A program made the position numbers and the translations under genes. This document shows positions 554-43,128 of a stretch of DNA of 64,000 nt, in pieces. Positions within the stretch are counted from its first letter, which is position 1, and every line of letters begins with the position of its first letter. Below the pieces are notes generated by a model. The model was given only the letters and a program-made list of their open reading frames with translations, had not been told where the DNA came from and did no database searches. This DNA comes from Gemmatimonadales bacterium. GTDB taxonomy: Bacteria; Gemmatimonadota; Gemmatimonadetes; Gemmatimonadales; GWC2-71-9. The stretch lies in assembly GCA_965248285.1 (NCBI GenBank), contig CBDFJJ010000010.1:133062-197061 (forward strand), given 5' to 3'.

Positions 554-940
554 GGTTTCGGCCACGGCTTCTTCGACGATCGCTGCGGTAATGTTACCGT
601 CGCCGGCTTTCTCAACGGCCAGCTCCCACACCACGGGTTGTTCTTCGGGTTCGAGTTTGGTGAGAGGACGGGCCTGGGCTTCGTTGGCTGGAATTTGTAC
701 GCAATTGCGTACAATCAAATTCTCCACCACTCTGGCGCCCGCGATCAATTCGTAGGCACGTTGACGGCCCAAGTCGCATTGGGCTCTGCAATAGGCGTCG
801 AATGTGTCGTACTCGACGGCATAGATGCCATCGTCGCGCATTTCGCGGAGTGCGTTGCCCGTGTTGACGAAACTCTGGAGTCCGCGCCCAATGACCGCGT
901 TTAGTTCCTCGTAGCGTGTCCGTGCAAGTTGTGTCGTCAT
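506..940 (-). CDS. hypothetical prophage early protein (possibly DNA-binding); native 3' end replaced by IS copy A
   Basis: The ATG at 938-940 overlaps the stop of the upstream gene (ATGA). The last ~15 codons run into the IS (junction 553/554). No family recognised. Confidence 0.4.
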   Translation of the reverse strand: MTTQLARTRYEELNAVIGRGLQSFVNTGNALREMRDDGIYAVEYDTFDAYCRAQCDLGRQRAYELIAGARVVENLIVRNCVQIPANEAQARPLTKLEPEEQPVVWELAVEKAGDGNITAAIVEEAVAETLAGCGKIHGGPRLSG

Positions 941-1365
941 AGCCGGAATTCGTCGTCGCCCGCCGCGATCAACTGGTACTCCATACCGATGGCGATGAGC
1001 TTGGCACGTCGCAGCGGCAACCACGTCGCGCGGCACTTATTCACCCGAAACGCTTCCTCGATTGCGTCCTCGGTGATGTCGGCCTGTTGCGTCTCGGAGA
1101 TGAGTTCGGGTGTGAGGTCGCGTGATCGCTGCGTTACTTCCCGCAGCCGCGCATGGAAATGCTCAACGATGTCAGGCCGGTCGCTGTTCGCAGCCGTCGC
1201 GGCCATCGTCAACACGTCGGCGAGCGGCCCGCATCGTCCACTGAAATAATCCTCGGCCGTGCGCTCTGAGATCTTCTTCAACGAGGCGTACCGTTGAAAC
1301 ACCAAACGGCTGGTGACGCGTTTCCCGTTGGCGCCCCAATGACGCCGGCGTAGAGTGGTCGCCAT
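937..1365 (-). CDS. hypothetical prophage early protein
   Basis: ORF starting MATTLRRRHW. Its first 27 codons plus the upstream region are duplicated at 3267-3440. Confidence 0.45.
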   Translation of the reverse strand: MATTLRRRHWGANGKRVTSRLVFQRYASLKKISERTAEDYFSGRCGPLADVLTMAATAANSDRPDIVEHFHARLREVTQRSRDLTPELISETQQADITEDAIEEAFRVNKCRATWLPLRRAKLIAIGMEYQLIAAGDDEFRL

Positions 1366-1458
1366 GTCAGCACACACCCAACCATTCATCTACCCGCTGG
1401 CATTCGGCCAAGGCTGCCTTCGCCGATTCGTACCGCTCAGGCAGAGGAGCATGCGCGA
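1285..1458. repeat. 174-bp direct repeat, partner 3267-3440
   Basis: Read by eye as identical, offset 1982 nt. Similarity decays over the next ~20 nt. Confidence 0.8.
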
Positions 1459-1714
1459 CGTCGACATCCGGAGGAGGATGAACCGAGACAGCAACCGATG
1501 TCGTCATGACAACACGCGCCGACCGCTGGTGAGCAACCCGGCGTCCATGGCGAGGTTGAAGTGGAATGAGCCCTTGCCGATGCCATTCACCTCAGGCTTC
1601 CACACTCCATCCTCGAACTGCACAAGGAGTTCCCGCAGGTAGGACAGGTCGCGCTTCACGAGGCGGCCTCGAGGAAGGTCCGGAGACGGGTCTGAGGGTG
1701 GATGTGGAGGACGC

Positions 1715-1972
1715 TCATGCGTCCCACCCGTGGTTGGCTGGCCCTGCGCCTTGTACGCGCCTAGCTTCGGCACGTAAAGACTCTCGGGCACGCTGGATAT
1801 GCACGTCGCCAACCCACATATGAACGGCGATGATCAAGAACGACATTACGAGGCCCCACGCAAGGAGCAGGGCCACTAATACGTATTCGGGGAGATCGCT
1901 CACCAAGGCGACACCGATACCCACACATGCGAGAATCCCGACGACCACAATCCACCGGGGGAAGCTGGCCAT
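1715..1972 (-). CDS. small two-TM membrane protein (paralog of 2548-2853)
   Basis: MASFPRWIVVVGILACVGIGVALV...HMWVGDVHIQRA aligns with MAGFPKWIAVVGTLVCVGIGAALV...HMWVGDGHIQRA. The start is uncertain (1972-1987). Confidence 0.45.
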   Translation of the reverse strand: MASFPRWIVVVGILACVGIGVALVSDLPEYVLVALLLAWGLVMSFLIIAVHMWVGDVHIQRARESLRAEARRVQGAGPANHGWDA

Positions 1973-2444
1973 GTCAGACATTCTCATATCGACGTTCCTC
2001 ACCATCGGGGGCATGTTCGGGGTGGCCGCGCTTGGCGCTCGGGTGCAGATCGTGGTGACGCGAAAGGTCATCGAGGCCGAGCACCGGAAGGTGATGGCCC
2101 AGATCGACGCCGAATCGCGAGTCAAGCGGAGCGAATCCAGGCTCGATCGACTGCACGACACCGTGAGCGACCTGATCGCCGAGTCGGACCCCGACAGCTT
2201 CCCGATCGATCCGAACGCCCAACGTCTCGCTCAACTCATTTCCAGGACACAGATCTTGTTGGATACCCGTATTCCCACACAGGCGGCTCTCAACACCGCT
2301 GTCAACGAACTCGGACTGACCCTCCGGGGCTGGAGGGACCTTCCCGATTCCGTAGAAGCCTTCCGGGCCCATGCGAGGGTCGTCGAGCTCGCCAAGGCCG
2401 TACTCAGGGGCGAGACCGGACGGAGCATCGAGCGCACAGGGTAG
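1971..2444 (+). CDS. membrane-anchored helical protein, unknown function
   Basis: 157-aa ORF with consistently G/C third positions. N-terminal TM (ILISTFLTIGGMFGVAALGA) followed by a helical region. It diverges from 1715-1972 through a shared CATG. Confidence 0.5.
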   Translation: MSDILISTFLTIGGMFGVAALGARVQIVVTRKVIEAEHRKVMAQIDAESRVKRSESRLDRLHDTVSDLIAESDPDSFPIDPNAQRLAQLISRTQILLDTRIPTQAALNTAVNELGLTLRGWRDLPDSVEAFRAHARVVELAKAVLRGETGRSIERTG

Positions 2445-2547
2445 GGCTGCTGTCACGGAGCCGGTCTGCGGATGTATTCGCCAACCCGAGAGATGGGCGA
2501 ACGGCGACGGGTCGATCAGTTCGAGAGATACGAAGCAGTCGCTCATG

Positions 2548-2853
2548 CTAGACATCCCACCGTCGCTCTGCGCTCTCGATGCGCCTAGCTTCGATGCGCC
2601 TAGACTCTTGGGCACGCTGGATATGCCCATCGCCAACCCACATATGAACGGCGACGTTCAAGAACGACATGACGACGGCCCACGCGAATACCAGGACTTT
2701 CAGCACGTGCAGGGGGAGATCGAACACAAGGGCGGCACCGATCCCAACGCATACGAGAGTCCCAACGACTGCGATCCACTTGGGGAATCCGGCCATGTAG
2801 CGGCGTGGACGCAATTCGTGGTGGACCGCCGCCACACGCTGCGCCGAGCTCAT
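2548..2853 (-). CDS. small two-TM membrane protein (paralog of 1715-1972)
   Basis: Paralogy as above. The ATG at 2851-2853 overlaps the upstream stop (ATGA). Confidence 0.45.
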   Translation of the reverse strand: MSSAQRVAAVHHELRPRRYMAGFPKWIAVVGTLVCVGIGAALVFDLPLHVLKVLVFAWAVVMSFLNVAVHMWVGDGHIQRAQESRRIEARRIESAERRWDV

Positions 2854-3134
2854 GACGCCACCCCCGAGGAGCTGCGGACCGTCTTCGAAGACGAAGTCCG
2901 GAAGAGGTTCTCGTAGAGGGTGGGCACGTGACGCCCGACCCACTGAACCGCCTGGTCCGTGGTCAAGATGAGCTTCCGGTCCGGTGTGTCGGGGAGGAAC
3001 TGGCATATGAAGGTCGTCGCGTAGACGACGCAGAGCTCTCCGGGCGTCGCGTCGGGGGTCCAAGCCCAGAACATGTGGAGCCGTGCCTTCGCGTGGGCGG
3101 ATGTCACTTCGGCCTCCCGTAGGCGCTCCATCAC
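2850..3134 (-). CDS. hypothetical prophage protein
   Basis: High GC3 from (V)MERLREAEV to the stop. The longer 173-aa track ORF is a chimera created by the 174-bp repeat. Confidence 0.45.
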   Translation of the reverse strand: MMERLREAEVTSAHAKARLHMFWAWTPDATPGELCVVYATTFICQFLPDTPDRKLILTTDQAVQWVGRHVPTLYENLFRTSSSKTVRSSSGVAS

Positions 3135-3266
3135 GAGAGTCCGCCTTCCATGCTTCGCCTCAGGGCGTCGCGTCTCCGCGCCCCTCACGACACCCCTCCC
3201 TCCCCCGCCAGCACACGCTCGCGAGCCTCCTGTTGGGCCTGCTTGATCCGTTCTTCTCTCCTGCAC

Positions 3267-3440
3267 GGCGTACCGTTGAAACACCAAACGGCTGGTGACG
3301 CGTTTCCCGTTGGCGCCCCAATGACGCCGGCGTAGAGTGGTCGCCATGTCAGCACACACCCAACCATTCATCTACCCGCTGGCATTCGGCCAAGGCTGCC
3401 TTCGCCGATTCGTACCGCTCAGGCAGAGGAGCATGCGCGA
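3267..3440. repeat. 174-bp direct repeat, partner 1285-1458
   Basis: See partner. Confidence 0.8.
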
Positions 3441-3506
3441 TGTCGAGATCCGGGGGAGGAGAAACGGAGTCGCGTCGAGCGACCTCAGTTGCGATGGTCA
3501 CGATGA

Positions 3507-3713
3507 TTATGCGGAGGCTGGATTTGCTTTACGAACGATTTGCAGGGCGCGCTCAAACGCACTCTCCACGACGAAGTGCGCGCGTTTCTTGCCGAGCATT
3601 GCGCAGGCGATGTCGATCGTCCGGCGTTCCTCCTCGGTCGCCCAGCCGCCAACCACTGTTTTCTTGTCGGGGTCGTTAGCGTCGGGTAGATTGCCTACGT
3701 TGCTGGAAGCCAT
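3507..3713 (-). CDS. small ribbon-helix-helix-type DNA-binding protein (Cro-like or antitoxin-like)
   Basis: 68 aa, motif DKKTVVGGWATEEERRTIDIACAMLGK. Divergent from an XRE gene. Positional analog of 61562-61777. Confidence 0.5.
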   Translation of the reverse strand: MASSNVGNLPDANDPDKKTVVGGWATEEERRTIDIACAMLGKKRAHFVVESAFERALQIVRKANPASA

Positions 3714-3818
3714 TGCGTACCTTGGACTTAAAGGGATAGCGCAACTCCATCTAAGGGGAGTTACGCATGATAGTATCCCCTTAAAAGGATTTTGTCAAGA
3801 AAGGGAGTATCCCCTTAA
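3714..3818. promoter_or_regulatory. divergent promoter/operator region of prophage L immunity switch
   Basis: TATCCCCTTAAA at 3774-3785 and 3808-3819. Inverted relatives at 3728-3738 (TTAAAGGGATA) and 3751-3760 (CTAAGGGGAG). TTGTCA at 3792-3797. Confidence 0.5.
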
Positions 3819-4730
3819 ATGGACTGGAAAGTTGCCGAGAACGTCGGCGCGAGGATCGCAGATCTCAGAAAAGCTCTTGGGGGTATATCCCAGCGAAAAC
3901 TGGCCGCGCGAGTAGGGGTGGGCAGCAAGCAGGTGTCAAAATGGGAAAACGGGGACCAGGTTCCGCCTCGAACCCGCCTCGCCTCCTGGGTAGAGCGCGA
4001 AGGTTGGCCGATTGAGATGTTCGCGGAGGGCGGTCCAATGCCCTCCACGGTTGTTAACAAGCCCGTTAACGACCTTTCCGGAGAGGGTCGGGCCCTTTAT
4101 GTGTCGACCATAGCAGGAAGACCGCGCGTGCGTGTAAAGGAGCTTGTCGAGGAGGTTCAGAACAGGATCATGCAAGAGCTTTTTGAGCATGGCCTTGAGC
4201 CCGTGCCGCGAGACAGCATAATCTGGGCCGACACTGAAGCGGCCGAACGGAAGACGAGACTTCTACTCAGGCGGATGGACGATGCTATGGATGAGTTGGT
4301 GGGTGGAAAAATGGGGACAAACGCCAAAATTGGCTTATTTATGGCGAAAACATCGTTCGTGAAGGCCGTCGAGGATCAAAGTCGGCATGCAGGCTTGGAG
4401 CCCACCAAGTGGGTTGCTGATTTGGGGGCGGAGGTCGAGGAAAACCGATCGTCCATAATCGACAAACACATCCAATGGTTGGGGCAGGGCCTCCCGGCCA
4501 TGGTTAAACGGCACGTGGACGAGGTCATAGACGAGATGACACCGGGCCTAGCAGAGGACGATCTAGTTGATGTAGTGATGAATGTAGCAACAGAGGGCGA
4601 GGAGGGACCTAAAGCCTCGGTGATCGCCTCAGGCTCGCGACACGGCGATACTTCGAAGCAGGTGCGGCAGAGCGAATCCACCGACGAGGAGGAAGAGGCA
4701 CCTCCGCAGCAGAAGGAATCAGGCGAATAG
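3819..4730 (+). CDS. XRE-family HTH regulator (CI-like) with long acidic C-terminal extension
   Basis: N-terminus RIADLRKALGGISQRKLAARVGVGSKQVSKWENG is a classic HTH_3. Shares GGPMPS-VVN with 60983-61435. Confidence 0.7.
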   Translation: MDWKVAENVGARIADLRKALGGISQRKLAARVGVGSKQVSKWENGDQVPPRTRLASWVEREGWPIEMFAEGGPMPSTVVNKPVNDLSGEGRALYVSTIAGRPRVRVKELVEEVQNRIMQELFEHGLEPVPRDSIIWADTEAAERKTRLLLRRMDDAMDELVGGKMGTNAKIGLFMAKTSFVKAVEDQSRHAGLEPTKWVADLGAEVEENRSSIIDKHIQWLGQGLPAMVKRHVDEVIDEMTPGLAEDDLVDVVMNVATEGEEGPKASVIASGSRHGDTSKQVRQSESTDEEEEAPPQQKESGE

Positions 4731-6043: not shown

Positions 6044-7458
6044 AGAGGTATTGTCAAATGTTGTGGATCGGTGAGTGATCAAGCGGCGACCTTCCGATCC
6101 GTGTTCTCTTTGTCAGTTTCCTGCATACCATCTTTGAATTGTTCTCCTGCCAACACCAGGGGGAGAAGTTCTGGAGCGTTGAGTTTCCGCCAACGTTGCT
6201 GCGCCATCTCCAACAGCTTGAACGCCATCGTCAGCCCTTTGCTCCGCGAGCCCGCTCCCTTGGTCACGCGCTGTCGTAACCGGACCGTCGCGAAGGCAGA
6301 CTCGATCACGTTCGTCGAACGGATATGTTTCCAATGCTCGGCCGGAAAATCAAAATGGCTGTACAGGTGCTCCTGGTCCCGCGTGAGCGAGGCGACCGCC
6401 TTGGGATACTTGGCCGCATACGCGGTGGCGAAACGCTCGACCAGCGCCTCGGCCTCCGCACGCGACTCCGCATACATCATCTCGCGCAACACCCGCTTCG
6501 CCGCCGGCTGCAAACGTTTCGGAAGCTTGTCCAACACGTTGGCCATCCGGTGCACCCAGTCGCGCTGCTGCCGCGTCGCCGGCCACACCTCCCGCACCGC
6601 TGCCCAGAACCCCAACGCGCCATCCCCAATCGCCAGCACCGGGGCCCGCATCCCCCGACGCTTCAGATCGCGCAACACCGCCAACCAGCTCTCCGTGCTC
6701 TCCCGATAGCCGTCCTCCACCGCGATCAGCTCTTTCGTCCCATCCGCCCGGGCGCCCAGCATCACCAGCGTACACAGCCGGTCGGCCTCGAGGCGAATGT
6801 TGAAGTGGATCCCGTCGACCCAGACGTACACATACTCCCGATCACGCAGATCACGCTGGCGAAACGCCTGGTATTCCCCCTCCCACGCCGCCGTCAATCG
6901 CGTGATCGTCGTCGGGGACAAGCCTGATGCGTCCTCACCCAACAAGATCGGCAACGCCTCGCGAAAATCTCCCGTCGACAGACCGCGCAGATACAACACC
7001 GGCAAGACCTCCGCCACCTTCGGCGACCGCCGCATATAGGGAGGCAAAATCTTGCTCGTGAACTGCGCCCGCATACGACGGTCATGCACCCGTGGCGCGG
7101 TCACCGTGACCGTACCAGCACCCAGCGTCACCTTGCGGGGACGGGCTTTGCCATTGCGCACCACCAGGGCGCGGCCCTCTCCGTCTCGCTCAATCCGATA
7201 TCGCTCGACATACTCGGTCACTTCCGCGTCCAACGCACTCACCAGCATCCGCCGAGCTCCCTCTCTGGCAAGCTCGTCCAGGTCTGCGAACAGTCCGTTC
7301 CCTTTGCTCTCAGACGCATTCTCTATTATCCTCAACATCGGTGGCGTGTCCTTTCTCCGGTCGTCACAACCGGATCTCGTGTACGTTTCAACTGACTACA
7401 CGAAAGGATACGCCGCCTTTCTCATTCCTCCAATCCACAACTTTCGAAAATAACTCCC
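6044..7458 (-). mobile_element. IS256-family insertion sequence, full length
   Basis: Imperfect terminal IRs (GAGGTATTGTCAAATGTTGTGGATCGG vs GGAGTTATTTTCGAAAGTTGTGGATTGG). Second copy at 15098-16217. I could not find a TSD. Confidence 0.8.
6079..7338 (-). CDS. IS256-family (mutator-type) transposase
   Basis: 419-aa ORF with typical IS256 N-terminus (LDELAREGARRMLVSALDAEV) and DDE region. Confidence 0.95.
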   Translation of the reverse strand: MLRIIENASESKGNGLFADLDELAREGARRMLVSALDAEVTEYVERYRIERDGEGRALVVRNGKARPRKVTLGAGTVTVTAPRVHDRRMRAQFTSKILPPYMRRSPKVAEVLPVLYLRGLSTGDFREALPILLGEDASGLSPTTITRLTAAWEGEYQAFRQRDLRDREYVYVWVDGIHFNIRLEADRLCTLVMLGARADGTKELIAVEDGYRESTESWLAVLRDLKRRGMRAPVLAIGDGALGFWAAVREVWPATRQQRDWVHRMANVLDKLPKRLQPAAKRVLREMMYAESRAEAEALVERFATAYAAKYPKAVASLTRDQEHLYSHFDFPAEHWKHIRSTNVIESAFATVRLRQRVTKGAGSRSKGLTMAFKLLEMAQQRWRKLNAPELLPLVLAGEQFKDGMQETDKENTDRKVAA

Positions 7459-35284: not shown

Positions 35285-37045
35285 ATGGTCGATAAAAAAG
35301 TCGGCATCACGCTGAAGGGCCGAGACCTCGCGTCCAAGGCGCTCGGTAAAGTCCGCGGCACGATCAACCGCATCAAGTCTGCGGTGTTCTCGCTGCAGGG
35401 CGCCTTGGTGGGGGTCGGCGTCTTGATGGTCGGACGCATCACGCGTTCGTTCGTCACCGCCTTCACCAAGCAGCAGGATGCCGTCGAGGGTCTCCGAGCC
35501 TCGCTCATCGCCACCGGCAAGGACGGAGAAGCGTCACTTCGCCGTCTCACCGAGCACGCTGCCGAGCTCCAGAAGGTGACCAAAGTCGGCGATGAGGCGA
35601 CGATCGCGGCCATGGCCTCGCTTGCGCTGATGGCGCCGTCGCTTGACGTCCCGGCCCTCGAGCGGGCGCAGCGGGCCATGATCGGGCTCGCTGATGTGTT
35701 TTTCAAAGGCGACTTGGAGGCGGCCGCGCTCCAAATCGGGAAGACGGTCGGGGGCACTACGAACGCGCTCAGTCGGTACACCATCGAGGTCGACATGGCG
35801 GGAGACGCCAACGCGCGGATGAATCAGATCGTTGAGCAAGCGAATCGGTTCTTTGACGTCTCCAAAGCCCGAGCGCAAACGCTCGCCGGCCGGTTGGCAC
35901 GACTCGGCAACAGTTGGGGCGACCTGAAAGAACGGATCGGGCAGTTCCTCGGCGAGTCGCCGCTGGTCAACGCTTTTCTCGACGAGATACGCACGATCGT
36001 CGAGGATGTGACCGGCGCGCTCAACCGGGGCGGACCGCAGATCTTCGAGGCGTTTGCGGCCCTCGGGCAAATCGCCGGCAACGCATTCGTCGAGGCGTTC
36101 CTGCGGGTCGTGCAACTCCTCCACGCCTCGATGGACAACGTCGTCGACTTCCTCGGCGATAAGATCGAGGCGACGTTCAAGCGGAAATTCCCGGCGCTCA
36201 AGGTGGCGTTCGACATCATCACGAAGAAGGTCGACATCGCCGGTCCGGAGACGGCACGCCCAGAGACCGGACCCACGCTCATCGACCGCATGATCGCCGA
36301 GCGCCAGGCGGCGCGCATCGCGGCGCGGGAACGCCTCGCCGCGGCCGGCGCCGGATTCGCGCCTCCCCCTCCCCCCACCACTCCGCCCCCTCCCCCCACC
36401 ACTCCGCCACGTCCCCCGACGGACGCAGAAATCCGTCGTGCTGACCTCACGGCCCGGTTCGGCGGACAACTCCCTGGGGTGCAAGGTGCCGTGACCCGTG
36501 GGGTGGCGGGTGGTGTGAACATGAGCCCACTCCTGCCGCGACCCGCGGACCTGAAAGCGCTCGTGACCTCATCGAAGGAATACGGCGAGGCCCTGAGGAA
36601 ATCGAACGCCTTGCTCATCGAGGCGAAGCGGCGCCAAGAGGAAGCCGCGGAGGCGGCGCGTGCTGCGGCGGTGGCGGCCTTGCAGTCCTGGGCGTTCGCC
36701 GCCAGCGAGTTGATTAGATCGCTCCAGGGCGGCGGTCTGTTCGGCATCCTTGGCGCCATCGGTGGGATCGCCTCACTCCTTCCTGGCGGGCAGATCCTCG
36801 GCGGGGCATTGTTGGCTGGATCGGCCGTGGGCGGTGCGCTGTCTAACAGGAACGGCCAGCCGGTGCGCGTGGACGTGGAACGGTTCGGTAGTCAGGCAGA
36901 GGGGCAGCTCTCGAACACCCGCCGAGGTCTGGAGCGTGTCGAGATCACGATCGTGGACCCGCGCACCGACTTTCGACGGGTCGTCCAGGAGATTCAGGCG
37001 CTCGAGGCGCGCGACGGTATAGCCCGAACGACGGTGAGGCCCTGA
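35285..37045 (+). CDS. phage tail tape measure protein
   Basis: 586 aa, helical. TMP-type N-terminus (...GDEATIAAMASLALMAPSL...). PPPPTTPPPPPTTPP repeat and Gly-rich C-terminus. Confidence 0.8.
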   Translation: MVDKKVGITLKGRDLASKALGKVRGTINRIKSAVFSLQGALVGVGVLMVGRITRSFVTAFTKQQDAVEGLRASLIATGKDGEASLRRLTEHAAELQKVTKVGDEATIAAMASLALMAPSLDVPALERAQRAMIGLADVFFKGDLEAAALQIGKTVGGTTNALSRYTIEVDMAGDANARMNQIVEQANRFFDVSKARAQTLAGRLARLGNSWGDLKERIGQFLGESPLVNAFLDEIRTIVEDVTGALNRGGPQIFEAFAALGQIAGNAFVEAFLRVVQLLHASMDNVVDFLGDKIEATFKRKFPALKVAFDIITKKVDIAGPETARPETGPTLIDRMIAERQAARIAARERLAAAGAGFAPPPPPTTPPPPPTTPPRPPTDAEIRRADLTARFGGQLPGVQGAVTRGVAGGVNMSPLLPRPADLKALVTSSKEYGEALRKSNALLIEAKRRQEEAAEAARAAAVAALQSWAFAASELIRSLQGGGLFGILGAIGGIASLLPGGQILGGALLAGSAVGGALSNRNGQPVRVDVERFGSQAEGQLSNTRRGLERVEITIVDPRTDFRRVVQEIQALEARDGIARTTVRP

Positions 37046-37689
37046 TGCCCCCCCTCCTCGATGTCGAATTCGACTCCCGGGACACGGAACGGTTTCTCGG
37101 TGGCCTGGCCAAGCAAACCTCGTTCGCGTTGTCCGTTGCCATCAACGACACACTCAAAGACGCACAGAAGGTGCAGCGATCGCACCAACGGCGCGTGTTC
37201 ACGGTTCGCCGGCCGCAGTTCGTCGATCGGTCGGTCAAGATCAAACCCTTCGCGACGAAGCGGACGCTCGAGGGCACGATGGCGATTGATCCGCCTGGTG
37301 GGCAGCAGCGCTCCGACATTATCGCGAAGTTCGAACGCGGTGGACAGAAACGCCCTCGAGACGGACGCCACCTTGCCGTGCCCATCGACGTGAAGCGCAC
37401 GAAGGCCGGCGTGGTCACCCGCCGCAATCGTCCCAAGGGCTTCCTCTTCAAACGCGTCGGGCGATCGATACGCGGAGAGCGTCGCACGTTCATCATCCCC
37501 GGTGTGGGGATTTTCCAGCGCGTTGGTAGGCGGAAGAACTCGCGGATCCGTTTGCTCTATGCGTTCAAGACGCAAGTCCGGATTGATCGACGGCTCGATT
37601 TCATCACCAACGCCGAGCGGGTGGTGCGGCAGATGTTTGACCGGAATTTCGATCGCGCGTTTGATCGTGCAGTGGCGACGGCACGATGA
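37045..37689 (+). CDS. basic phage structural-module protein, unknown function
   Basis: 214 aa. The start overlaps the TMP stop (TGATG). Not homologous to 50822-51673. Confidence 0.4.
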   Translation: MPPLLDVEFDSRDTERFLGGLAKQTSFALSVAINDTLKDAQKVQRSHQRRVFTVRRPQFVDRSVKIKPFATKRTLEGTMAIDPPGGQQRSDIIAKFERGGQKRPRDGRHLAVPIDVKRTKAGVVTRRNRPKGFLFKRVGRSIRGERRTFIIPGVGIFQRVGRRKNSRIRLLYAFKTQVRIDRRLDFITNAERVVRQMFDRNFDRAFDRAVATAR

Positions 37690-37813: not shown

Positions 37814-38230
37814 ATGACAACAACACAGACGAAACCAGAACCCAAGACCGGCAGCGTCGGTGCGCTGATCCAGCAAGCCGAGGAAGCGCAGGCACGCGGA
37901 CGCGAGATCCTCGATGAACTGAACGAGATGAACAGGGTGTACGTGCAGCTGCTCGAAGCGTTGGAGGTACACGAAGCCACCATCGCCCGTATATGCGCGA
38001 CGAGGTCAGTACGCTCAACGCATATCACGGAAGAAGCCTGTCGAGTTGCCGCGCTGAGCGTCAACGCCTTGCTACGGCACCCACATCGGTCACCGGCATG
38101 TTGCGATGGGTGGTGTTGTTGCGATGGGTGGTGTTACCGCAGGTCGTTGCGGATGGACCGTATTGGGTCGGACAGTCACCAACGCACGCGCGGTTTCAAG
38201 GAGAGGTTTAGGGGTCGCTGCGGTCCCTGA
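37814..38230 (+). CDS. hypothetical; may be two short genes (37814-~37990 and 37993-38211)
   Basis: GC3 signal is good only for the first ~55 codons. An 18-bp tandem repeat lies at about 38101-38136. Confidence 0.25.
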   Translation: MTTTQTKPEPKTGSVGALIQQAEEAQARGREILDELNEMNRVYVQLLEALEVHEATIARICATRSVRSTHITEEACRVAALSVNALLRHPHRSPACCDGWCCCDGWCYRRSLRMDRIGSDSHQRTRGFKERFRGRCGP

Positions 38231-38259: not shown

Positions 38260-38475
38260 ATGGACGAGATCCGCGCACGAAAGAAGGTGGCCCATGGATT
38301 GTTCCTTGGGAGGATCGTCAAGCCGAAGTGTTGTTCGCGGTGCGGTGCGGTGCCACCAAGGCATCGACCGCACGGACACCACGAGGATTACGAGTATCCC
38401 CTGGGCGTTGCACGGCTTTGTGCCGACTGCCACACAGCGCACCATGGGCATACGTGTTGCAAGAAAAAAACGTAA
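38260..38475 (+). CDS. HNH endonuclease, last 2 codons supplied by the inserted transposon
   Basis: CSRCG...HGHHEDYEYPL...LCADCHTAHH. Sits in the position upstream of the terminase, typical of HNH-assisted cos phages. Confidence 0.75.
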   Translation: MDEIRARKKVAHGLFLGRIVKPKCCSRCGAVPPRHRPHGHHEDYEYPLGVARLCADCHTAHHGHTCCKKKT

Positions 38476-38508
38476 TAACATACTTGACTCACCCAGTCGG
38501 GGTATGCC

Positions 38509-39369
38509 ATGATTGAGGCGTACCACTTCTACAGGCTGGGATGTCTCATGGAGTTGATCGAAACAGGGATGCTAGTTCATCAGGGGTATCTCTTGGGGAC
38601 GGTGCAGTATGTAACCGAGGGATTGTCGATTCGTAGCATGAGAATCGGTACGCAAGAACCCATTGACCTAGAAAGGCTCATTACGCGAACCGAAGGTGAG
38701 CCACTATCCGCAGAGTGGAGGGGTGCTTGGAAAGGACTTTTGGAACGGCTGCAAAGTGAATGTCAAAAACTGCATCTGAAAGCTTCGCTCTATTCGATCC
38801 GTGGAGCGCTGGAACACCTCAAAGACGAAGAGGCGACTTTAGACTTGTTCAAAAAGCATTGTGAACAGATTGCGGGGCGATTGGCGGACGAGCTTCGCGA
38901 AACGGTATGTGTCGCTATTGATCCAATGCACGCCAAATTTTTATCAGATAATCAATTACCGTTTGGCTCAGAGGTGGCTGACCGGTTTCCAAGGGCACAG
39001 GTAGACATAGAAGAAGCCGGCATATGTCTTGCTTTTCATCGCGGAACTGCTTGCGTATTCCACCTAATGCGCGTGCTAGAGGTTGCCCTTCAAGTTCTGG
39101 GCGCCGATCTCAACATTCCAAAACCCGACCGTAATTGGCAGAACCTCTTAAACGAAATTGACAAAGCGGTGAAAGGGTTACCATACCAGTCGCAAGCCGA
39201 TAAGGACGCCCGCGCCCTACGATCAGAGGCGGCGGTCCATCTTCGACAGGTTAAGGACGCGTGGCGTAACTACGTAATGCACCCGAGAGACACCTATACT
39301 GTTGATCAGGCCACAGATGTTTGGAACCACACCAAGGCGTTTATGTCGAGCCTTGCAAAGTTCCTCTAG
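38509..39369 (+). CDS. HEPN-like protein (passenger; candidate defence/abortive-infection RNase)
   Basis: 286-aa ORF (alternative start 38548). C-terminal helical domain with WRNYVMHP (Rx4H). The two 60-nt lines I counted gave 48-52% G+C, against 67% in a terminase line. Confidence 0.45.
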   Translation: MIEAYHFYRLGCLMELIETGMLVHQGYLLGTVQYVTEGLSIRSMRIGTQEPIDLERLITRTEGEPLSAEWRGAWKGLLERLQSECQKLHLKASLYSIRGALEHLKDEEATLDLFKKHCEQIAGRLADELRETVCVAIDPMHAKFLSDNQLPFGSEVADRFPRAQVDIEEAGICLAFHRGTACVFHLMRVLEVALQVLGADLNIPKPDRNWQNLLNEIDKAVKGLPYQSQADKDARALRSEAAVHLRQVKDAWRNYVMHPRDTYTVDQATDVWNHTKAFMSSLAKFL

Positions 39370-39527
39370 GGAAGATGACTGTCGCTATCTGTTTGCTTGC
39401 GCGCATCCGTCAGCAGTTCCGATTTGGGGACAGATACGATCTTGCGTACCAGTTCGGCGGTACGTCGCAACGCCTCATCCCCGTCCGGCTCGGGGTCCGG
39501 ACGGGGTTTCTCTTTCCTGTCGGTCAT
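39366..39527 (-). CDS. 53-aa hypothetical protein downstream of the transposase
   Basis: My own translation: MTDRKEKPRPDPEPDGDEALRRTAELVRKIVSVPKSELLTDARKQTDSDSHLP. Below the track's size cut-off. Its stop overlaps the HEPN-like stop (CTAG). Confidence 0.3.
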   Translation of the reverse strand: MTDRKEKPRPDPEPDGDEALRRTAELVRKIVSVPKSELLTDARKQTDSDSHLP

Positions 39528-39566
39528 TTGCGTTTCTTCGGTCCGCGTTTCAGGTATGGCCCTCGC

Positions 39567-40541
39567 TCATCCTGGCGTCGTCGCCGGGTCCAGGTCCGCG
39601 CCGATCAGTTCGGCGTAGGTCAGCCGCTTGCCGATGATCCGCCGCATCACGTCGATGAACCGGGCCACGTCCTTGGTCTTGCGGTTGTTGAACCGGAACA
39701 CCTGTTCATCAAGGTAGCGGAACAAATGAAACGGCTCCACCGAAACGTACGTGCCGCGCATCCCGCGCTTCAACAGGCTCCAGAAGTTCTCCAGGCCGTT
39801 GACGTGGATCTTCCCTTTGGCGTAGGACGTGGCGTGGTTGATGACCTTGTGGACGTAGAGCCGCCGCAGCGAGACGTAGGAGCGGAGTTGGTCGGTGTAG
39901 ACGGTGGCCCCGGGCTCGACATGTTCATCCACGACGCGGCTCACTGTCTCTTTCCGAATGTTGGGGACGATCTCGGTACGGACGGTGCTGTGGCCCTTCC
40001 GTGCCTTCCGGTCCAGCACGCCCATGACGGCAGTCTTGCCGCTGGTCCCGGCCCGCCGACCGACCATGACCCGCTGTTTCCGCGCCAATGGCATGAACCG
40101 CGCCTTGCCACCGATGAAGGTCTCGTCAATCTCGACCTCACCGTCAATGCGATCGAAGGTCTGGGTCTGCATCGCCAACCGGATACGGTGGAGCATAAAC
40201 CACGAGGTTTTCTGCGTCACGCCGAGCGCCCGACCCAGCTCGTAGGAACTGATGCCGTTCTTGGCATTGGCCAGCATCCAGATGGCGGGCAACCACTTGG
40301 ACAGCGCAACCGGGGAATCTTCGAAGATCGTCCCGACCTTCGCCGAGAATTGCCGCTTACAGCTACGGCACTTCCATATGCGGCGGGTCTTGAGGAAAGA
40401 CGGCTCTGTGGCCTCGCAGCGCGGGCAGGTGACGCCCTCGGGCCACCGCATGGCGACGATGAAATCCAAGGCCACCTGGGGGTTCTGGAAGAAGGTCACG
40501 GCTTCGAGCAGGGATCGGGGAGCAGCGATTGTCTTGTTCAT
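39567..40541 (-). CDS. IS1595-family (ISXO2-like) transposase
   Basis: N-terminal zinc ribbon CPRCE...CRSCKRQFS, then IDETFIGGK and a DDE body. Confidence 0.9.
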   Translation of the reverse strand: MNKTIAAPRSLLEAVTFFQNPQVALDFIVAMRWPEGVTCPRCEATEPSFLKTRRIWKCRSCKRQFSAKVGTIFEDSPVALSKWLPAIWMLANAKNGISSYELGRALGVTQKTSWFMLHRIRLAMQTQTFDRIDGEVEIDETFIGGKARFMPLARKQRVMVGRRAGTSGKTAVMGVLDRKARKGHSTVRTEIVPNIRKETVSRVVDEHVEPGATVYTDQLRSYVSLRRLYVHKVINHATSYAKGKIHVNGLENFWSLLKRGMRGTYVSVEPFHLFRYLDEQVFRFNNRKTKDVARFIDVMRRIIGKRLTYAELIGADLDPATTPG

Positions 40542-40705
40542 GTACCCAATCTAAGGGCATAGGCTGGGTGTGTCAAGTATATTAGAGCGGAAAAAAAGGT
40601 ACTTCTGGCGCTTGAAGCCGTGAGGGTAACGCACGAGCACAGACGATCACTATATACGGCATGTGCGCAAGTCTATGTCGTGTCGTGTGTTCGGGAAGGC
40701 TGTTC

Positions 40706-41215
40706 ATGGTAACAAAGAGATCGACCCAGGCGACATCGCGCAACGCGCGGGTCACGCAAACAGCGTTGGCCAAATTATTCCGCGTTGACGTGCGAACGAT
40801 TCAGCGGTGGACCAAAGCCGGTATGCCGCGAGAGGGCGCCAGCCGGTCCTCCAAGTACGACTTGCCCCAGTGCATCGCGTGGCGACGGGAGGAAGACCGG
40901 AAAGAGGCCGAGGATCTCCGGCACCCCAAGACGTTCGAGGAAGCCCGGGCGCGGAAGATGGCGGCCGAGGCGGAATTGGCAGAACTCGACGTGATGGAGC
41001 GGCGCGGTGAGCTTGGCACGGTCGAGGAGATGGACGAAGTGATCACGACGGGGTTCGGTCGGATGCGGGCGTACGGCTTGGGTGCACCCTCTCGCCATGC
41101 TCGGGACTTTGTTGGACTCAAGACCGTGACGGCTGCGCGCAACGCCGTCCGACACCTGATCACCGAATTGTTCGACGCGTTCCATCGCATGGGCGAGGAA
41201 GACGAGGCTGCGTGA
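40706..41215 (+). CDS. terminase small subunit (Nu1-like HTH)
   Basis: VTQTALAKLFRVDVRTIQRWTKAGMP. Its stop overlaps the TerL start. The start could also be 40661. Confidence 0.65.
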   Translation: MVTKRSTQATSRNARVTQTALAKLFRVDVRTIQRWTKAGMPREGASRSSKYDLPQCIAWRREEDRKEAEDLRHPKTFEEARARKMAAEAELAELDVMERRGELGTVEEMDEVITTGFGRMRAYGLGAPSRHARDFVGLKTVTAARNAVRHLITELFDAFHRMGEEDEAA

Positions 41216-43128
41216 GTGTGGCGCTGGAGAACCTCACTGGTCCCGCGGAGGTCAGTGACCGATTTCGCGAGCACGCCCAGGCGATCTTTGCCCCGCCGGA
41301 GGATCTAACCGGGAGCGAGTGGGCCGATAAGTACCGCGTGATCAGCCCCGGCAACCCGGAGCCCGGTCCCTGGCGCACCGATCGCGCGCCCTACCTGCGC
41401 GAGATCATGAACGTCTGTACCGACCAAAGCGTCGGCGACAAACGTGTGGTGTTCATGAAGTCCGCCCGGGTGGGTGGGACCCAGGCCGGATGTAATGTGA
41501 TCGGGTTCTATACCCATGAAGTCCCGTCCCAGATGCTCGTGGTCCAGCCTACCAAGGAAGACGCCGAAGGATTTTCGAAAGAACAGTTGAAGCCCATGAT
41601 CGACGACACGCCCGTCCTCCGGGAGACCTATTACCCTGAAACGGGCCGGCGAGATTCCCGCAACACCATCCTCAAGAAGTCGTTCCCCGGGGGATTCTTG
41701 GTCATGGTGGGATCGAACAGCGCCTCGGGTTTTCGACGGCGCGACATTCAACGGGTGTTCTTGGAAGAGGTCGACGGTTACGGGCGGGTGGCGCGCGGGA
41801 GTTCGACCAATGCGGAAGGTGACCCGGTCACCCTGGCCGTCAAACGCACCCAGAACTACGACGACCGGCTGATCTACGAGAACTCCACCCCGACCATCAA
41901 GGGGCAGTCGCGCATCGAGCACGACTTCACCCTCTCCGATCAGCGTCGGTATTTCGTCCCCTGCCCCTTCTGCGGCCACATGCAGGTGTTGCACTGGCGC
42001 AACCTGCGCTGGGTGGACAATGACCCGGCGACGGTGCAGTACACCTGCGGGGAGATTTCCAACGAGGGCGAACTCGAGGCAGGATGCGGGAAACCGATCG
42101 AGGAACACCAGAAGCAATGGATGCTCCGCCGTGGGGAGTGGCGGGCCTCCCATGCGGGCCGGCGGATTATCGGCTTTCACCTCTGGGCGGCGTATTCACC
42201 CTTTACCACGTGGGAACGCTTGGTCGAGGAGTGGCTCAACGCCCAGGGCAACAACGAGCTCCTGCAGGTCTTCGTTAACACCGTGCTCGGGGAGACATGG
42301 GAGGGGCCCGCCGGCGAACAAATCGACCACACGGGACTCCTGGCCCGGCGCGAGCGGTATGCCACCGACGTGCCGGCCGGCGTGGGGCTGCTGACCGCAG
42401 GAACGGACGTGCAGGGCGATCGCCTCGAGGTCAGCGTGTGGGGGTGGGGAAAGGGAGAGGAGCAGTGGCTGATTGATCACCAAGTGCTTTTTGGCGACCC
42501 ACACCACGACGAGGTGTGGCGGCAGTTGGACGTGGTGCTCGATCGTCCGTGGAAGCACGCCTCCGGAGCCGACCTCCATCTCCGCGCCATGGGTGTCGAC
42601 GCGGGGGGGCATCATACCCTTGAGGTCCATCAATACTGTGCGGCTCGCTTTTCCCGGGGGGTGATGGCCATGCGAGGGGCCAACGTCCCGGGCGCGGCCG
42701 CGCTCCAGACACCGAGCACGAAAAGCAAAGCGAAAGGGAAACTGTGGACGACGGGCACGGAGGCGCTGAAGGATCTCTTGTATGCCCGGTTGAAACTCAC
42801 CACATCCGCACCGGGGTACGTCCATTTCCCGGTGCACATTGAGGACGAGTACTTCCGGCAACTCACGGCCGAGAAGGCGGTCACGCGCTATGTGAAGAGT
42901 CGGCCGGTGCGCAGGTACGACTTAAAACCCGGCCACCGGAACGAGGCGCTCGACTGTGCGGTCCTGGCGATCGCGGCGTTGATTGCGCTGGGGCCTATTC
43001 GCGACCATCTCGGCGTGTTGGTTGAACAGGTCAACGAAGCTGGCCGGTCGGGGCGGAAGGCCCCGGCGGGCAGGAGGCGACGACGCCTCCGCCGGACGGG
43101 GACCCTTTCCCGTGGCGTTGAGGTGTGA
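41212..43128 (+). CDS. terminase large subunit, lambda GpA family
   Basis: 638 aa. GSEWADKYRVISPGNPEPGPWRTDRAPYLREIMN is the GpA signature region. Confidence 0.9.
   Translation: MSVALENLTGPAEVSDRFREHAQAIFAPPEDLTGSEWADKYRVISPGNPEPGPWRTDRAPYLREIMNVCTDQSVGDKRVVFMKSARVGGTQAGCNVIGFYTHEVPSQMLVVQPTKEDAEGFSKEQLKPMIDDTPVLRETYYPETGRRDSRNTILKKSFPGGFLVMVGSNSASGFRRRDIQRVFLEEVDGYGRVARGSSTNAEGDPVTLAVKRTQNYDDRLIYENSTPTIKGQSRIEHDFTLSDQRRYFVPCPFCGHMQVLHWRNLRWVDNDPATVQYTCGEISNEGELEAGCGKPIEEHQKQWMLRRGEWRASHAGRRIIGFHLWAAYSPFTTWERLVEEWLNAQGNNELLQVFVNTVLGETWEGPAGEQIDHTGLLARRERYATDVPAGVGLLTAGTDVQGDRLEVSVWGWGKGEEQWLIDHQVLFGDPHHDEVWRQLDVVLDRPWKHASGADLHLRAMGVDAGGHHTLEVHQYCAARFSRGVMAMRGANVPGAAALQTPSTKSKAKGKLWTTGTEALKDLLYARLKLTTSAPGYVHFPVHIEDEYFRQLTAEKAVTRYVKSRPVRRYDLKPGHRNEALDCAVLAIAALIALGPIRDHLGVLVEQVNEAGRSGRKAPAGRRRRRLRRTGTLSRGVEV

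Follow-up and report, generated by a model that had tools for sequence, protein, structure and literature searches.

A HEPN-like passenger gene in an IS1595-family element inserted into a prophage HNH endonuclease gene

Insertion sequences (IS) are generally regarded as free of cargo. In the case described here, a minimal IS appears to bring a probable RNase effector, predicted as such, into a prophage beside its packaging genes. The locus lies in a 64-kb stretch of DNA from a Gemmatimonadales bacterium (the whole stretch analyzed, hereafter the window) and raises two questions: did a transposase gene and the HEPN-like gene next to it arrive together as one mobile unit, and what would such a passenger do? 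The original prediction, made from the letters of the sequence, was an IS1595-family transposon carrying a passenger gene and inserted into the 3' end of a phage HNH gene. We find terminal repeats and an 8-bp duplication that enclose both transposase and passenger, and we consider it very probable that positions 38471 to 40589 are a complete, apparently functional copy of an ISNwi1-like transporter IS (tIS) of the IS1595 family, with movement as a unit, end-borne promoters and an RNase-type passenger as the inferred parts of that reading.

Boundaries and target site

The element is discrete and 2,119 bp long. Its ends are marked by the longest inverted repeat of the region, with arms of 21 nt at 38476 to 38496 and 40564 to 40584 that are 90% complementary (19/21). 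When the termini are compared inward (from 38471, against the reverse complement of the sequence ending at 40589), 20 of the first 28 positions agree. The left terminal repeat, at the passenger end (38471 to 38498, plus strand), reads CGTAATAACATACTTGACTCACCCAGTC, and the right one, at the transposase end (40562 to 40589, minus strand), reads CGCTCTAATATACTTGACACACCCAGCC inward. Repeats of 26 nt had been proposed; the repeats are real, but with 19/21 matches in the core and 20/28 from the termini they are imperfect, and their core spans 21 nt. In the window, this core motif is confined to two sites, the ends of the element (0 expected in 100 shuffles). Directly outside the repeats, GAAAAAAA is present as an exact 8-bp target-site duplication at 38463 to 38470 and 40590 to 40597, as was first noticed. 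The ends of this copy are CGTAATAAC and CGCTCTAAT. Its outermost bases are CG, versus GG in most relatives, and its two repeats mismatch at 3 of the first 5 positions; because of these differences, the mobility of the window copy itself is only putative.

The interrupted gene can be read across the element. The 5' part of the phage HNH endonuclease gene, codons 1 to 70, occupies 38260 to 38470 on the plus strand, and its open reading frame (ORF) now runs to 38475, giving 71 amino acids that end in CCKKKT. The displaced last 8 codons and stop (RYFWRLKP) are found at 40598 to 40623 on the same strand. Joining 38470 to 40598 restores the frame, as had been claimed, and yields a 78-amino-acid protein, MDEIR...CCKKKRYFWRLKP, which matches the phage endonuclease family phrog_2340 (E value, 1.9e-10); the HNH sequence shows an HH..D..C..CH..HH motif. 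The predicted empty-site junction, with the flanks joined and the element removed, is TGTTGCAAGAAAAAAAGGTACTTCTGG.

Outside the element follow, on the plus strand, the terminase small-subunit gene terS (40661 to 41215, with a probable start at 40706; Phage_Nu1 and, at 8.1e-27, phrog_57) and the large-subunit gene terL (41212 to 43128; GpA ATPase and nuclease domains). The element thus separates the HNH gene from both terminase genes, in line with the first reading of the locus. In cos-type phages, an HNH endonuclease is reportedly encoded beside the terminase genes, as is HK97 gp74. The likeness lies in a small HNH protein encoded directly upstream of terS and terL; in contrast to the HK97 arrangement, the HNH gene here lacks its last 8 codons and stands 2.1 kb further from terS. 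The insertion may affect HNH-assisted DNA packaging of the prophage.

A search for empty-site alleles of the phage, in viral contigs, a protein index, exact look-ups and one close relative, found none. The restored HNH protein had no match among the viral contigs and no shared words in the 5.8-billion protein index, and looking up terS, the transposase, the passenger and P0001 by exact match gave no record. L088, the sole close relative among phages (84% nucleotide identity), begins 13 nt past the restored HNH stop and is therefore uninformative on the insertion site.

Recurrence of the unit and assignment to the IS1595 family

Dozens of unrelated genomes, spread over many phyla, have elements of the same architecture that share the inverted-repeat consensus GGCAATAATATACTTGAC and are flanked by 8-bp duplications; the pattern of repeats and duplication that had been proposed for one site thus recurs at dozens of independent loci and survives the refutation test set with the original prediction. 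With the passenger as query, the loci recovered have both genes, passenger and transposase, within their best inverted repeat (consensus GG(C/T)AAT(A/T)ATATACTTGAC), and identical 8-bp flanks lie at, or within 1 to 2 bp of, the predicted ends in about 14/31. Complete elements found through the transposase have identical 8-bp flanks in 22/35 cases. One Blastocatellia genome holds two copies at different sites (L009 and L010), and a 1,540-bp copy (L015) lacks a transposase yet is bounded by both repeats and by the duplication CTTAATAA. An IS1595 transposase lies at most 5 kb away from 48 (about 60%) of the top 80 genomic relatives of the passenger and is convergent and downstream in 42 of the 48. 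Because architecture, repeat consensus and 8-bp duplications recur together in dozens of unrelated genomes, we infer that the unit transposes whole. The DDE transposase would recognize both terminal inverted repeats and move the entire 2.1-kb unit.

The transposase gene (39567 to 40541, minus strand) is full length and intact and encodes 324 amino acids. Its catalytic domain matches PF12762 (4.6e-39, 134 bits; cut-off, 27) and its N-terminal zinc ribbon matches PF12760 (7.1e-14, 51.9 bits; cut-off, 25.4), and the protein matches NF033547 of NCBIfam (3.8e-56, 190 bits; cut-off, 75). Both domains exceed the curated cut-offs, which bears out the family named in the original prediction, and all residues invariant in 25 relatives are kept (D139, D217, E251...K258 and E279...R283). 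With its ISXO2-like catalytic domain, zinc ribbon, inverted repeats and 8-bp duplication, the element has the features of the IS1595 family. It is also a tIS by definition, since its passenger (38509 to 39369) lies between the inverted repeats (bioRxiv 10.1101/2021.05.26.445724); the same preprint states that transporter IS occur only in the IS1595 and IS66 families. In common with other tIS of the IS1595 family, it has a single zinc-ribbon DDE transposase, short inverted repeats, an 8-bp duplication and internal passenger genes. Within that family, the ISNwi1 group reportedly comprises tIS with passenger genes. We take this group to be characterized by ends of the form ggnnatTAT, a DDEK + ER4 signature and lengths of 1,750 to 4,750 bp with passengers. 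The ends of the present lineage, GG(C/T)AAT(T/A)AT, its sizes of about 1.8 to 4.5 kb and the E251...K258 and E279...R283 spacings of the transposase all fit, whereas the outermost bases of the window copy are CG rather than GG. The element is most like the ISNwi1 group, an assignment made from features in ISfinder tables and not from comparison with reference sequences.

Passenger gene and conserved small protein

The passenger gene (38509 to 39369, plus strand; an alternative ATG start at 38548 is possible) is convergent to the transposase gene and encodes 286 amino acids. Its product has a variable, helical N-terminal half of ~140 residues and a conserved C-terminal domain at about residues 140 to 286. 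That domain bears the motif R253-N254-x3-H258, an instance of the Rx4-6H motif of the HEPN superfamily; its R, N and H are unchanged across 60 homologues. Against curated Pfam and NCBIfam models, the passenger reaches no threshold (best, DUF4145; E value, 0.073; 13.6 bits; cut-off, 23.1), and the sub-threshold Pfam matches of its homologues are led by DUF4145, Hypoth_Ymh, HEPN and Csm6-HEPN. When PDB sequences were searched with a profile of the passenger alignment, only spurious coiled-coil matches came up. The model of the C-terminal domain has four helices (pLDDT, 91.8), and its top-probability Foldseek matches are the HEPN structures 3o10 (probability, 0.95; TM-scores, 0.52/0.55), 1ufb (0.92; 0.51/0.58), 4nqf and 1wol, which are non-significant (E values of at least 0.28) and have TM-scores of only around 0.5 to 0.58. 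The ranking was useful only once this domain was modeled alone; the full-length model gave none.

The invariant motif, the sub-threshold HEPN-type matches and the non-significant structural matches agree with the label HEPN-like that the gene had been given, and the passenger probably belongs to an uncharacterized HEPN-like family whose members have an RNxxxH motif. It would by analogy most likely be a metal-independent RNase of the conflict type, e.g., an abortive-infection effector, defense protein or toxin. Two solo homologues have neighbors of that type: one (L001) lies between SLFN/AlbA_2 and SIR2_2 genes, and another adjoins HipA and VapC genes on a Rhizobium plasmid. With the HEPN proteins of abortive-infection and toxin systems (the HEPN/MNT toxin, Csm6/Csx1 HEPN, DUF4145 and Hypoth_Ymh), it shares a predicted all-helical bundle and a conserved R-N-x3-H after a long helix, besides the structural matches; it differs from them in its extra N-terminal half and in having no threshold Pfam HEPN match and no MNT, CARF or other usual partner. 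PADLOC models match neither the passenger nor the small ORF downstream of the transposase, so the description of the passenger as a candidate defense gene is kept as a prediction of a defense or toxin role.

This small ORF, of 53 codons (39366 to 39527, minus strand), ends in a stop that overlaps the passenger stop by 4 nt. It has no Pfam match. Its product is part of a conserved family of small proteins that share the motif (T)PFxKFxxLAxxIVxVPKxE and, usually, a basic tail (E value of the window match, 5.4e-16). Two types of small ORF accompany two transposase clades, and a link between them is statistically unsupported (hhalign probability, 3%). The best-surviving alternative to our reading is that the passenger and the small ORF are a toxin-antitoxin (addiction) pair that stabilizes the element or the prophage and does not protect the host from other phages. 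HEPN domains are common as toxins, the 4-nt overlap of the stops recurs at a second locus (L004), and Tn3-family transposons carry toxin-antitoxin modules, HEPN toxins included (TnCentral preprint). About 30/80 passenger homologues are found alone, without repeats in the vicinity, and some of these have toxin-antitoxin genes as neighbors, as on the Rhizobium plasmid. However, the small-ORF model matches in 47/80 loci found through the transposase, most of them without a HEPN passenger, no small ORF is detectable near three solo HEPN homologues on plasmids, and the element has no MNT-type nucleotidyltransferase, the usual HEPN antitoxin. The small ORF thus tracks the IS lineage and not the HEPN gene, and we reject it as the HEPN antitoxin. 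The original prediction listed the 286-codon gene and the 53-codon ORF together as contents of the element; both are there, with the refinement that the latter belongs to the IS lineage. The likeness to the Tn3-family elements, a small nuclease- or toxin-type gene that moves along inside a transposable element, stops at a different transposase family and mechanism (Tn3 is replicative, with a resolvase), at the lack of a recognizable cognate antitoxin and at a single-gene passenger in a variable cargo position. We regard an addiction pair as unlikely and prefer a tIS with a putative RNase-type passenger.

Variable cargo and inward promoters

Sibling elements recovered through the transposase carry both the same and different cargo. 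Only about 9/80 elements found through the transposase carry a HEPN-like passenger. The 35 complete siblings measure 1,839 to 4,521 bp, and none consists of the transposase alone. Their cargo, where sampled, includes a RelA_SpoT gene that matches PADLOC PDC-S33 (5e-115), an AbiL-like ATPase that matches PADLOC AbiLi (1.7e-43), methylase-nuclease fusions (N6_N4 methylase fused to Mrr), DUF3800 proteins (in four elements) and many proteins without any family match. Judged by such matches, some sibling cargo is known or candidate defense genes. A 239-amino-acid convergent gene in a PIN-carrying element of Methylobacterium was considered and is not a HEPN relative. The passenger does lie inside the transposon, as first proposed; it is not a unique cargo, as the cargo position of this lineage has several alternative occupants, and it would fill the place that siblings give to other genes.

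Could the passenger instead be an accessory to transposition or its regulation, e.g., in processing transposase mRNA, with no role in conflict or defense? Convergent, overlapping transcription units could permit cross-talk at the RNA level, and linkage to IS1595 transposases in about 60% of the family would fit. The rarity of HEPN-like passengers among closely related transposases, the others carrying unrelated cargo, argues against this, as do the solo homologues and the weak co-divergence of HEPN protein and transposase (Mantel r, 0.27; HEPN identity, 0.31 within transposase clades versus 0.30 between them), and we give the proposal little credence. The same weak correlation leads us to reject a single ancient capture followed by HEPN-transposase coevolution. 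Least credible of all is that the transposase alone is mobile and the HEPN-like gene a resident phage (moron) gene amid coincidental repeats: its G+C content differs from that of the transposase, and 11 viral contigs hold homologues, not all of them together with a transposase, but this reading is already contradicted by repeats that are unique in the window to the element ends and that, with the duplication, enclose both genes, by an HNH frame restored on removing both together, and by the same two-gene unit, repeats and duplications at dozens of unrelated chromosomal sites. The cargo is, as noted at the outset, lower in G+C (0.475 to 0.54 for the passenger, 0.585 to 0.66 for the transposase and 0.60 to 0.68 for the flanks).

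For the tIS that we favor, the repeats suggest how a changing cargo may be expressed. By consensus match, the left repeat contains an inward-pointing, promoter-like TTGACT followed 18 nt on by CATGAT, and the right repeat contains TTGACA, 17 nt and TAGATT, aimed at the transposase gene. Across the lineage, a -10-like hexamer lies 16 to 19 nt after the TTGAC of the repeat at 48/63 transposase ends and 28/60 cargo ends (6 to 9% in shuffled controls). The conserved core TTGAC may also serve as a -35 box, paired with a -10 that faces inward; transcription of the passenger would then start from one end, and that of the transposase and small ORF from the opposite one. Such end-borne promoters would explain why passengers are usually convergent to the transposase and beside the far repeat. 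A G+C-rich hairpin of 10 pairs followed by a T-rich run (39479 to 39506, plus strand), found by consensus scan only, sits within the small ORF on the opposite strand and is a candidate terminator of the passenger transcript. Siblings with PDC-S33/RelA-SpoT, AbiL-like and restriction-modification-like genes, and promoter-like sites inside both repeats, were observed in the lineage as a wider pattern.

Implications

We propose that a unit of transposase, conserved small protein and convergent passenger landed in the last codons of the prophage HNH gene and would thereby have duplicated 8 bp of target just upstream of terS. A tIS of the IS1595 family is a known kind of element; the passenger family is undescribed. 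In the searchable literature on IS1595 with HEPN, defense or tIS, we found no description of this HEPN-like family, nor of the conserved small ORF or repeat-borne inward promoters.

More tentatively, and as a possibility that we hold to be rather doubtful, the ISNwi1-like tIS lineage could be a dedicated shuttle for single-gene defense or toxin cargo in at least 8 phyla and in prophages. Its repeats would provide an inward promoter at the cargo end, its small protein would aid transposition or cargo control, and the HEPN-like family would represent a novel RNase of abortive infection, which phages could gain when such an IS inserts. If so, the cargo position would be a discovery site for new defense genes, many unannotated passengers included, and a cheap place to seek them. 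Should this wider pattern be borne out, transposable elements of the smallest size can carry conflict genes among chromosomes, plasmids and phages.

An IS1595-family transposon interrupts a prophage HNH gene

The element at window positions 38471-40589 (2,119 bp) is bounded by imperfect inverted repeats (arms 38476-38496 and 40564-40584; 21 nt, 90% complementary), which form the longest inverted repeat within 38300-40800. Its termini, CGTAATAACATACTTGACTCACCCAGTC and CGCTCTAATATACTTGACACACCCAGCC, match at 20/28 positions, and the repeat core motif occurs at only two sites in the 64-kb window, both of them element ends (0 expected from 100 shuffles). Directly outside the repeats, on both sides, lies an 8-bp target duplication, GAAAAAAA (38463-70 and 40590-97). 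Joining the flanks with a single copy of the duplication yields an open reading frame (ORF) ending in ...CCKKKRYFWRLKP and a stop; the restored 78-amino-acid (aa) HNH protein matches phage endonuclease family phrog_2340 (E = 1.9e-10). At present, the HNH gene ends in ...CCKKKT and a stop. A tandem repeat (two copies of the 18-nt unit TTGCGATGGGTGGTGTTG, 38101-38136) lies inside a 138-aa ORF just 5' of this gene.

Three genes occupy the element. The 324-aa transposase (39567-40541, minus strand) matches DDE_Tnp_IS1595 (4.6e-39), Zn_ribbon_IS1595 (7.1e-14), and NCBIfam transpos_IS1595 (3.8e-56), all beyond the curated cut-offs; it is full length, and all positions that do not vary in 25 relatives are conserved in it, D139, D217, E251...K258, and E279...R283 among them. 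The passenger is a 286-aa ORF (38509-39369, plus strand) for which Pfam, NCBIfam, and PADLOC give no family above threshold. A 53-aa small ORF (39366-39527) lies between these two genes on the same strand as the transposase (minus), and its stop overlaps that of the passenger by 4 nt. G+C content is 0.475 to 0.54 in the passenger, 0.585 to 0.66 in the transposase, and 0.60 to 0.68 in the flanks. All parts of the original prediction for this interval, from the repeats, duplication, and restored frame to the genes and the low G+C content, are thus present in the sequence.

Downstream of the element are the terminase small subunit (terS; phrog_57, 8.1e-27) and large subunit (terL; GpA ATPase and nuclease domains), followed by portal, protease, and major head protein genes; a minor tail protein and a short tape-measure-like protein are encoded upstream of HNH. 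Ordinary bacterial genes (for transporters, a 3-hydroxyacyl-CoA dehydrogenase, an aldehyde dehydrogenase, and a TetR regulator) occupy ~13 to 32 kb of the window, and the contigs on which the 286-aa passenger is recorded are as long as 465 kb; the phage region thus lies in the chromosome of a bacterium and is either a prophage or the remnant of one. The tail genes (35285-37689, plus strand; the 586-aa tape-measure-like protein has a PPPPTTPPPPPTTPP tract) directly precede HNH-terS-terL, which is not the order usual in structural modules of prophages; a second tail block lies at 51.6 to 56.1 kb. A second, unrelated insertion sequence (IS) is represented by a 419-aa Mutator-family (IS256-like) transposase (6079-7338, minus strand; E = 1.3e-61).

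The insertion would have cost the HNH protein its 8 C-terminal residues, with the HNH motif kept, and would have put an extra 2.1 kb between the gene and terS. The nearest phage relative, the IMG/VR contig L088, is collinear from terS onwards at 84% nucleotide identity, and its position 1 corresponds to window position ~40636, 13 nt past the restored HNH stop. This start may mark the cos end of the phage genome or no more than a break in the assembly. In the first case, cos would be no more than ~40 bp away from the insertion, with a possible effect on packaging. No empty-site allele was found by exact look-ups or by searching the restored HNH protein against viral contigs and a 5.8-billion protein index.

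Passenger and transposase recur as a unit

Searching with the passenger returned 346 homologues, none of them named, and several of their neighborhoods share a layout of passenger followed by a convergent IS1595 transposase. Four loci (L004-L007) have a 52-aa ORF at the equivalent position with the identical 4-nt overlap, and passenger and transposase both lie within the best inverted repeat in three (L002, L003, and L004), where the repeat has the ...ACTTGAC... core of the window element. With each species represented by one genome, a scan gave 328 relatives, distributed over Acidobacteriota, Chloroflexota, Planctomycetota, Verrucomicrobiota, Nitrospirota, Gemmatimonadota, Alphaproteobacteria, "Deltaproteobacteria," and one archaeal metagenome-assembled genome. 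Among the best 80 of these, an IS1595 transposase lies no more than 5 kb away in 48, and in 42 of the 48 it is convergent and downstream. In 31 transposase-linked loci, passenger and transposase lie between paired repeats (consensus, GG(C/T)AAT(A/T)ATATACTTGAC); ~14 of these loci have identical 8-bp flanks (e.g., AGCGAATC, CAAGCCAT, TATACAAG, TTTAGTTT, TTTACGTG, and GGATTTTG) at the predicted termini or within 1 to 2 bp. The pattern of repeats and duplication, on whose recurrence the original prediction had staked its reading, was therefore found again across passenger-linked loci.

Two further cases point to movement as a unit. A single 7.9-Mb Blastocatellia contig carries two copies at different sites (L009 and L010), and a 1,540-bp copy (L015, 4778-6317) has the HEPN-like gene, the repeats at both ends, and an exact 8-bp duplication, CTTAATAA, with no transposase; it is likely a non-autonomous derivative mobilized in trans.

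In several elements (L012, L020, L023, L029, L075, and L078), the repeats run outwards at both ends into palindrome-like CCCCCTTT..AAAGG sequence, reflecting either longer repeats in that sub-lineage or a preference for a repeated palindromic target. Other HEPN-carrying copies are located in phage-like surroundings that contain DUF551, DUF932, and numerous small ORFs (L003, a 113-kb metagenome contig, and 11 IMG/VR contigs, L091-L101); in 6 of the 11 viral contigs, a transposase or remnants adjoin the HEPN gene, so prophage insertion by this type of element recurs. The intact 286-aa passenger (protein record P0121) is recorded on two contigs. A 263-aa variant on another contig of 450,640 bp (P0001) is identical over residues 1 to 243 and then diverges (…AAVQSYFRKLWIGGMRKAAYPFV), ahead of the RNxxxH motif; it is a second passenger copy with its catalytic end disrupted.

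The passenger is one of several exchangeable cargoes

A metagenome scan seeded with a transposase alignment reached relatives at 48 to 68% identity in 80 loci. Both repeats were present in 35 elements (1,839 to 4,521 bp), 22 with perfect 8-bp duplications, and none of the 35 consisted of a transposase only. The HEPN-like gene was found in only ~9 of the 80 loci. Elsewhere, the cargo included a RelA_SpoT protein matching PADLOC candidate PDC-S33 (5e-115), an AbiLi-like AAA_15/AAA_21 ATPase (1.7e-43), DUF3800 proteins in four elements, a fusion of N6_N4 methylase and Mrr nuclease in two, and many proteins without any family. On plasmids of cultured bacteria, IS1595 elements that are less closely related have PIN/VapC or AAA_15 genes as cargo. 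HEPN and transposase show scant co-divergence (Mantel r, 0.27; mean HEPN identity, 0.31 within transposase clades versus 0.30 between them), with which the low G+C content of the window passenger is consistent. Given these alternative occupants of the same position and the scant co-divergence, the passenger is one among several cargoes exchanged between elements.

About 30 of 80 passenger homologues are solo genes without repeat remnants; one (L001) is flanked by SLFN/AlbA_2 and SIR2_2 genes, and another, on a Rhizobium plasmid, adjoins HipA and VapC genes. Two IS1595 elements with transposases ~37% identical, on a Roseomonas plasmid (L105) and Methylobacterium oryzae pMOC1 (L107, ~693-4105), carry a 266- to 288-aa unknown protein, a PIN/VapC nuclease, and a ~60-aa ORF that by eye resembles the small ORFs of HEPN elements in the second transposase clade (L027, L058, and L085).

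Predicted roles of the passenger and small ORF

Invariant passenger residues in an alignment of 60 homologues include R253, N254, and H258, an RNxxxH motif of the Rx4-6H type, and the commonest sub-threshold Pfam matches among these homologues are DUF4145 (11/60), Hypoth_Ymh, HEPN, and Csm6-HEPN. The full-length AlphaFold model is all-helical (pLDDT, 88). Modeled separately (pLDDT, 91.8), the C-terminal domain is matched with highest probability by HEPN structures: sacsin HEPN 3o10 (probability, 0.95; TM, 0.52/0.55), TT1696 1ufb (0.92; 0.51/0.58), 4nqf, and 1wol. Because all structural E values are at least 0.28, HEPN-like is a reasonable label rather than a proven one. The motif, the company at the cargo position, and the context of solo homologues suggest that the passenger may be an RNase with a defense or toxin role.

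A profile built from 15 copies of the small ORF shows the motif (T)PFxKFxxLAxxIVxVPKxE, usually with a basic tail after it, and scores up to 1.8e-20 in passenger-seeded loci (window copy, 5.4e-16). It matches in 47/80 transposase-seeded loci, on either strand and mostly adjoining the transposase. Since most of these loci lack a HEPN gene and the small ORF was not detected near three solo HEPN genes on plasmids, it is a feature of the IS lineage rather than a partner specific to HEPN, which argues against a simple toxin-antitoxin pair. Our favored guess is a role in transposition or regulation.

The conserved repeat core holds TTGAC. Reading inward in the window, the transposase end has TTGACA, 17 nt, and TAGATT, and the cargo end has TTGACT, 18 nt, and CATGAT; a G+C-rich hairpin with a T-run (39479-39506, plus strand) lies 3' of the passenger. 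Across the lineage, a -10-like hexamer occurs 16 to 19 nt past the repeat TTGAC at 48/63 transposase ends and 28/60 cargo ends (6 to 9% in shuffled controls). Judged by these consensus matches, each repeat may carry the -35 element of an inward-pointing promoter. Such promoters would account for the usual convergent cargo beside the far repeat, and transposase binding at the ends could influence both.

A transporter IS with a variable cargo position

IS-like elements that carry passenger genes are termed transporter IS and are stated to be restricted to the IS1595 and IS66 families (bioRxiv 10.1101/2021.05.26.445724). The window element is an IS1595-family transporter IS, a known kind of element; the transposon with a passenger gene proposed in the original prediction is real, and that interpretation is supported. 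The literature searched contained no description of this HEPN-like passenger, the small ORF, or a defense-cargo theme for IS1595 elements. In the ISfinder family table, the ISNwi1 group is characterized by "ggnnatTAT" termini, 8-bp duplications, and the DDEK + ER4 signature, and members with passengers measure 1,750 to 4,750 bp. The lineage found here agrees with all four features. The outermost bases of the window copy are CG, not GG. By these group features, the lineage probably belongs to this group. Beyond the known type, the added interest lies in a broad lineage in which the content of the cargo position varies and is in some cases of defense type, and in an uncharacterized HEPN-like family that travels mostly on this IS1595 lineage.
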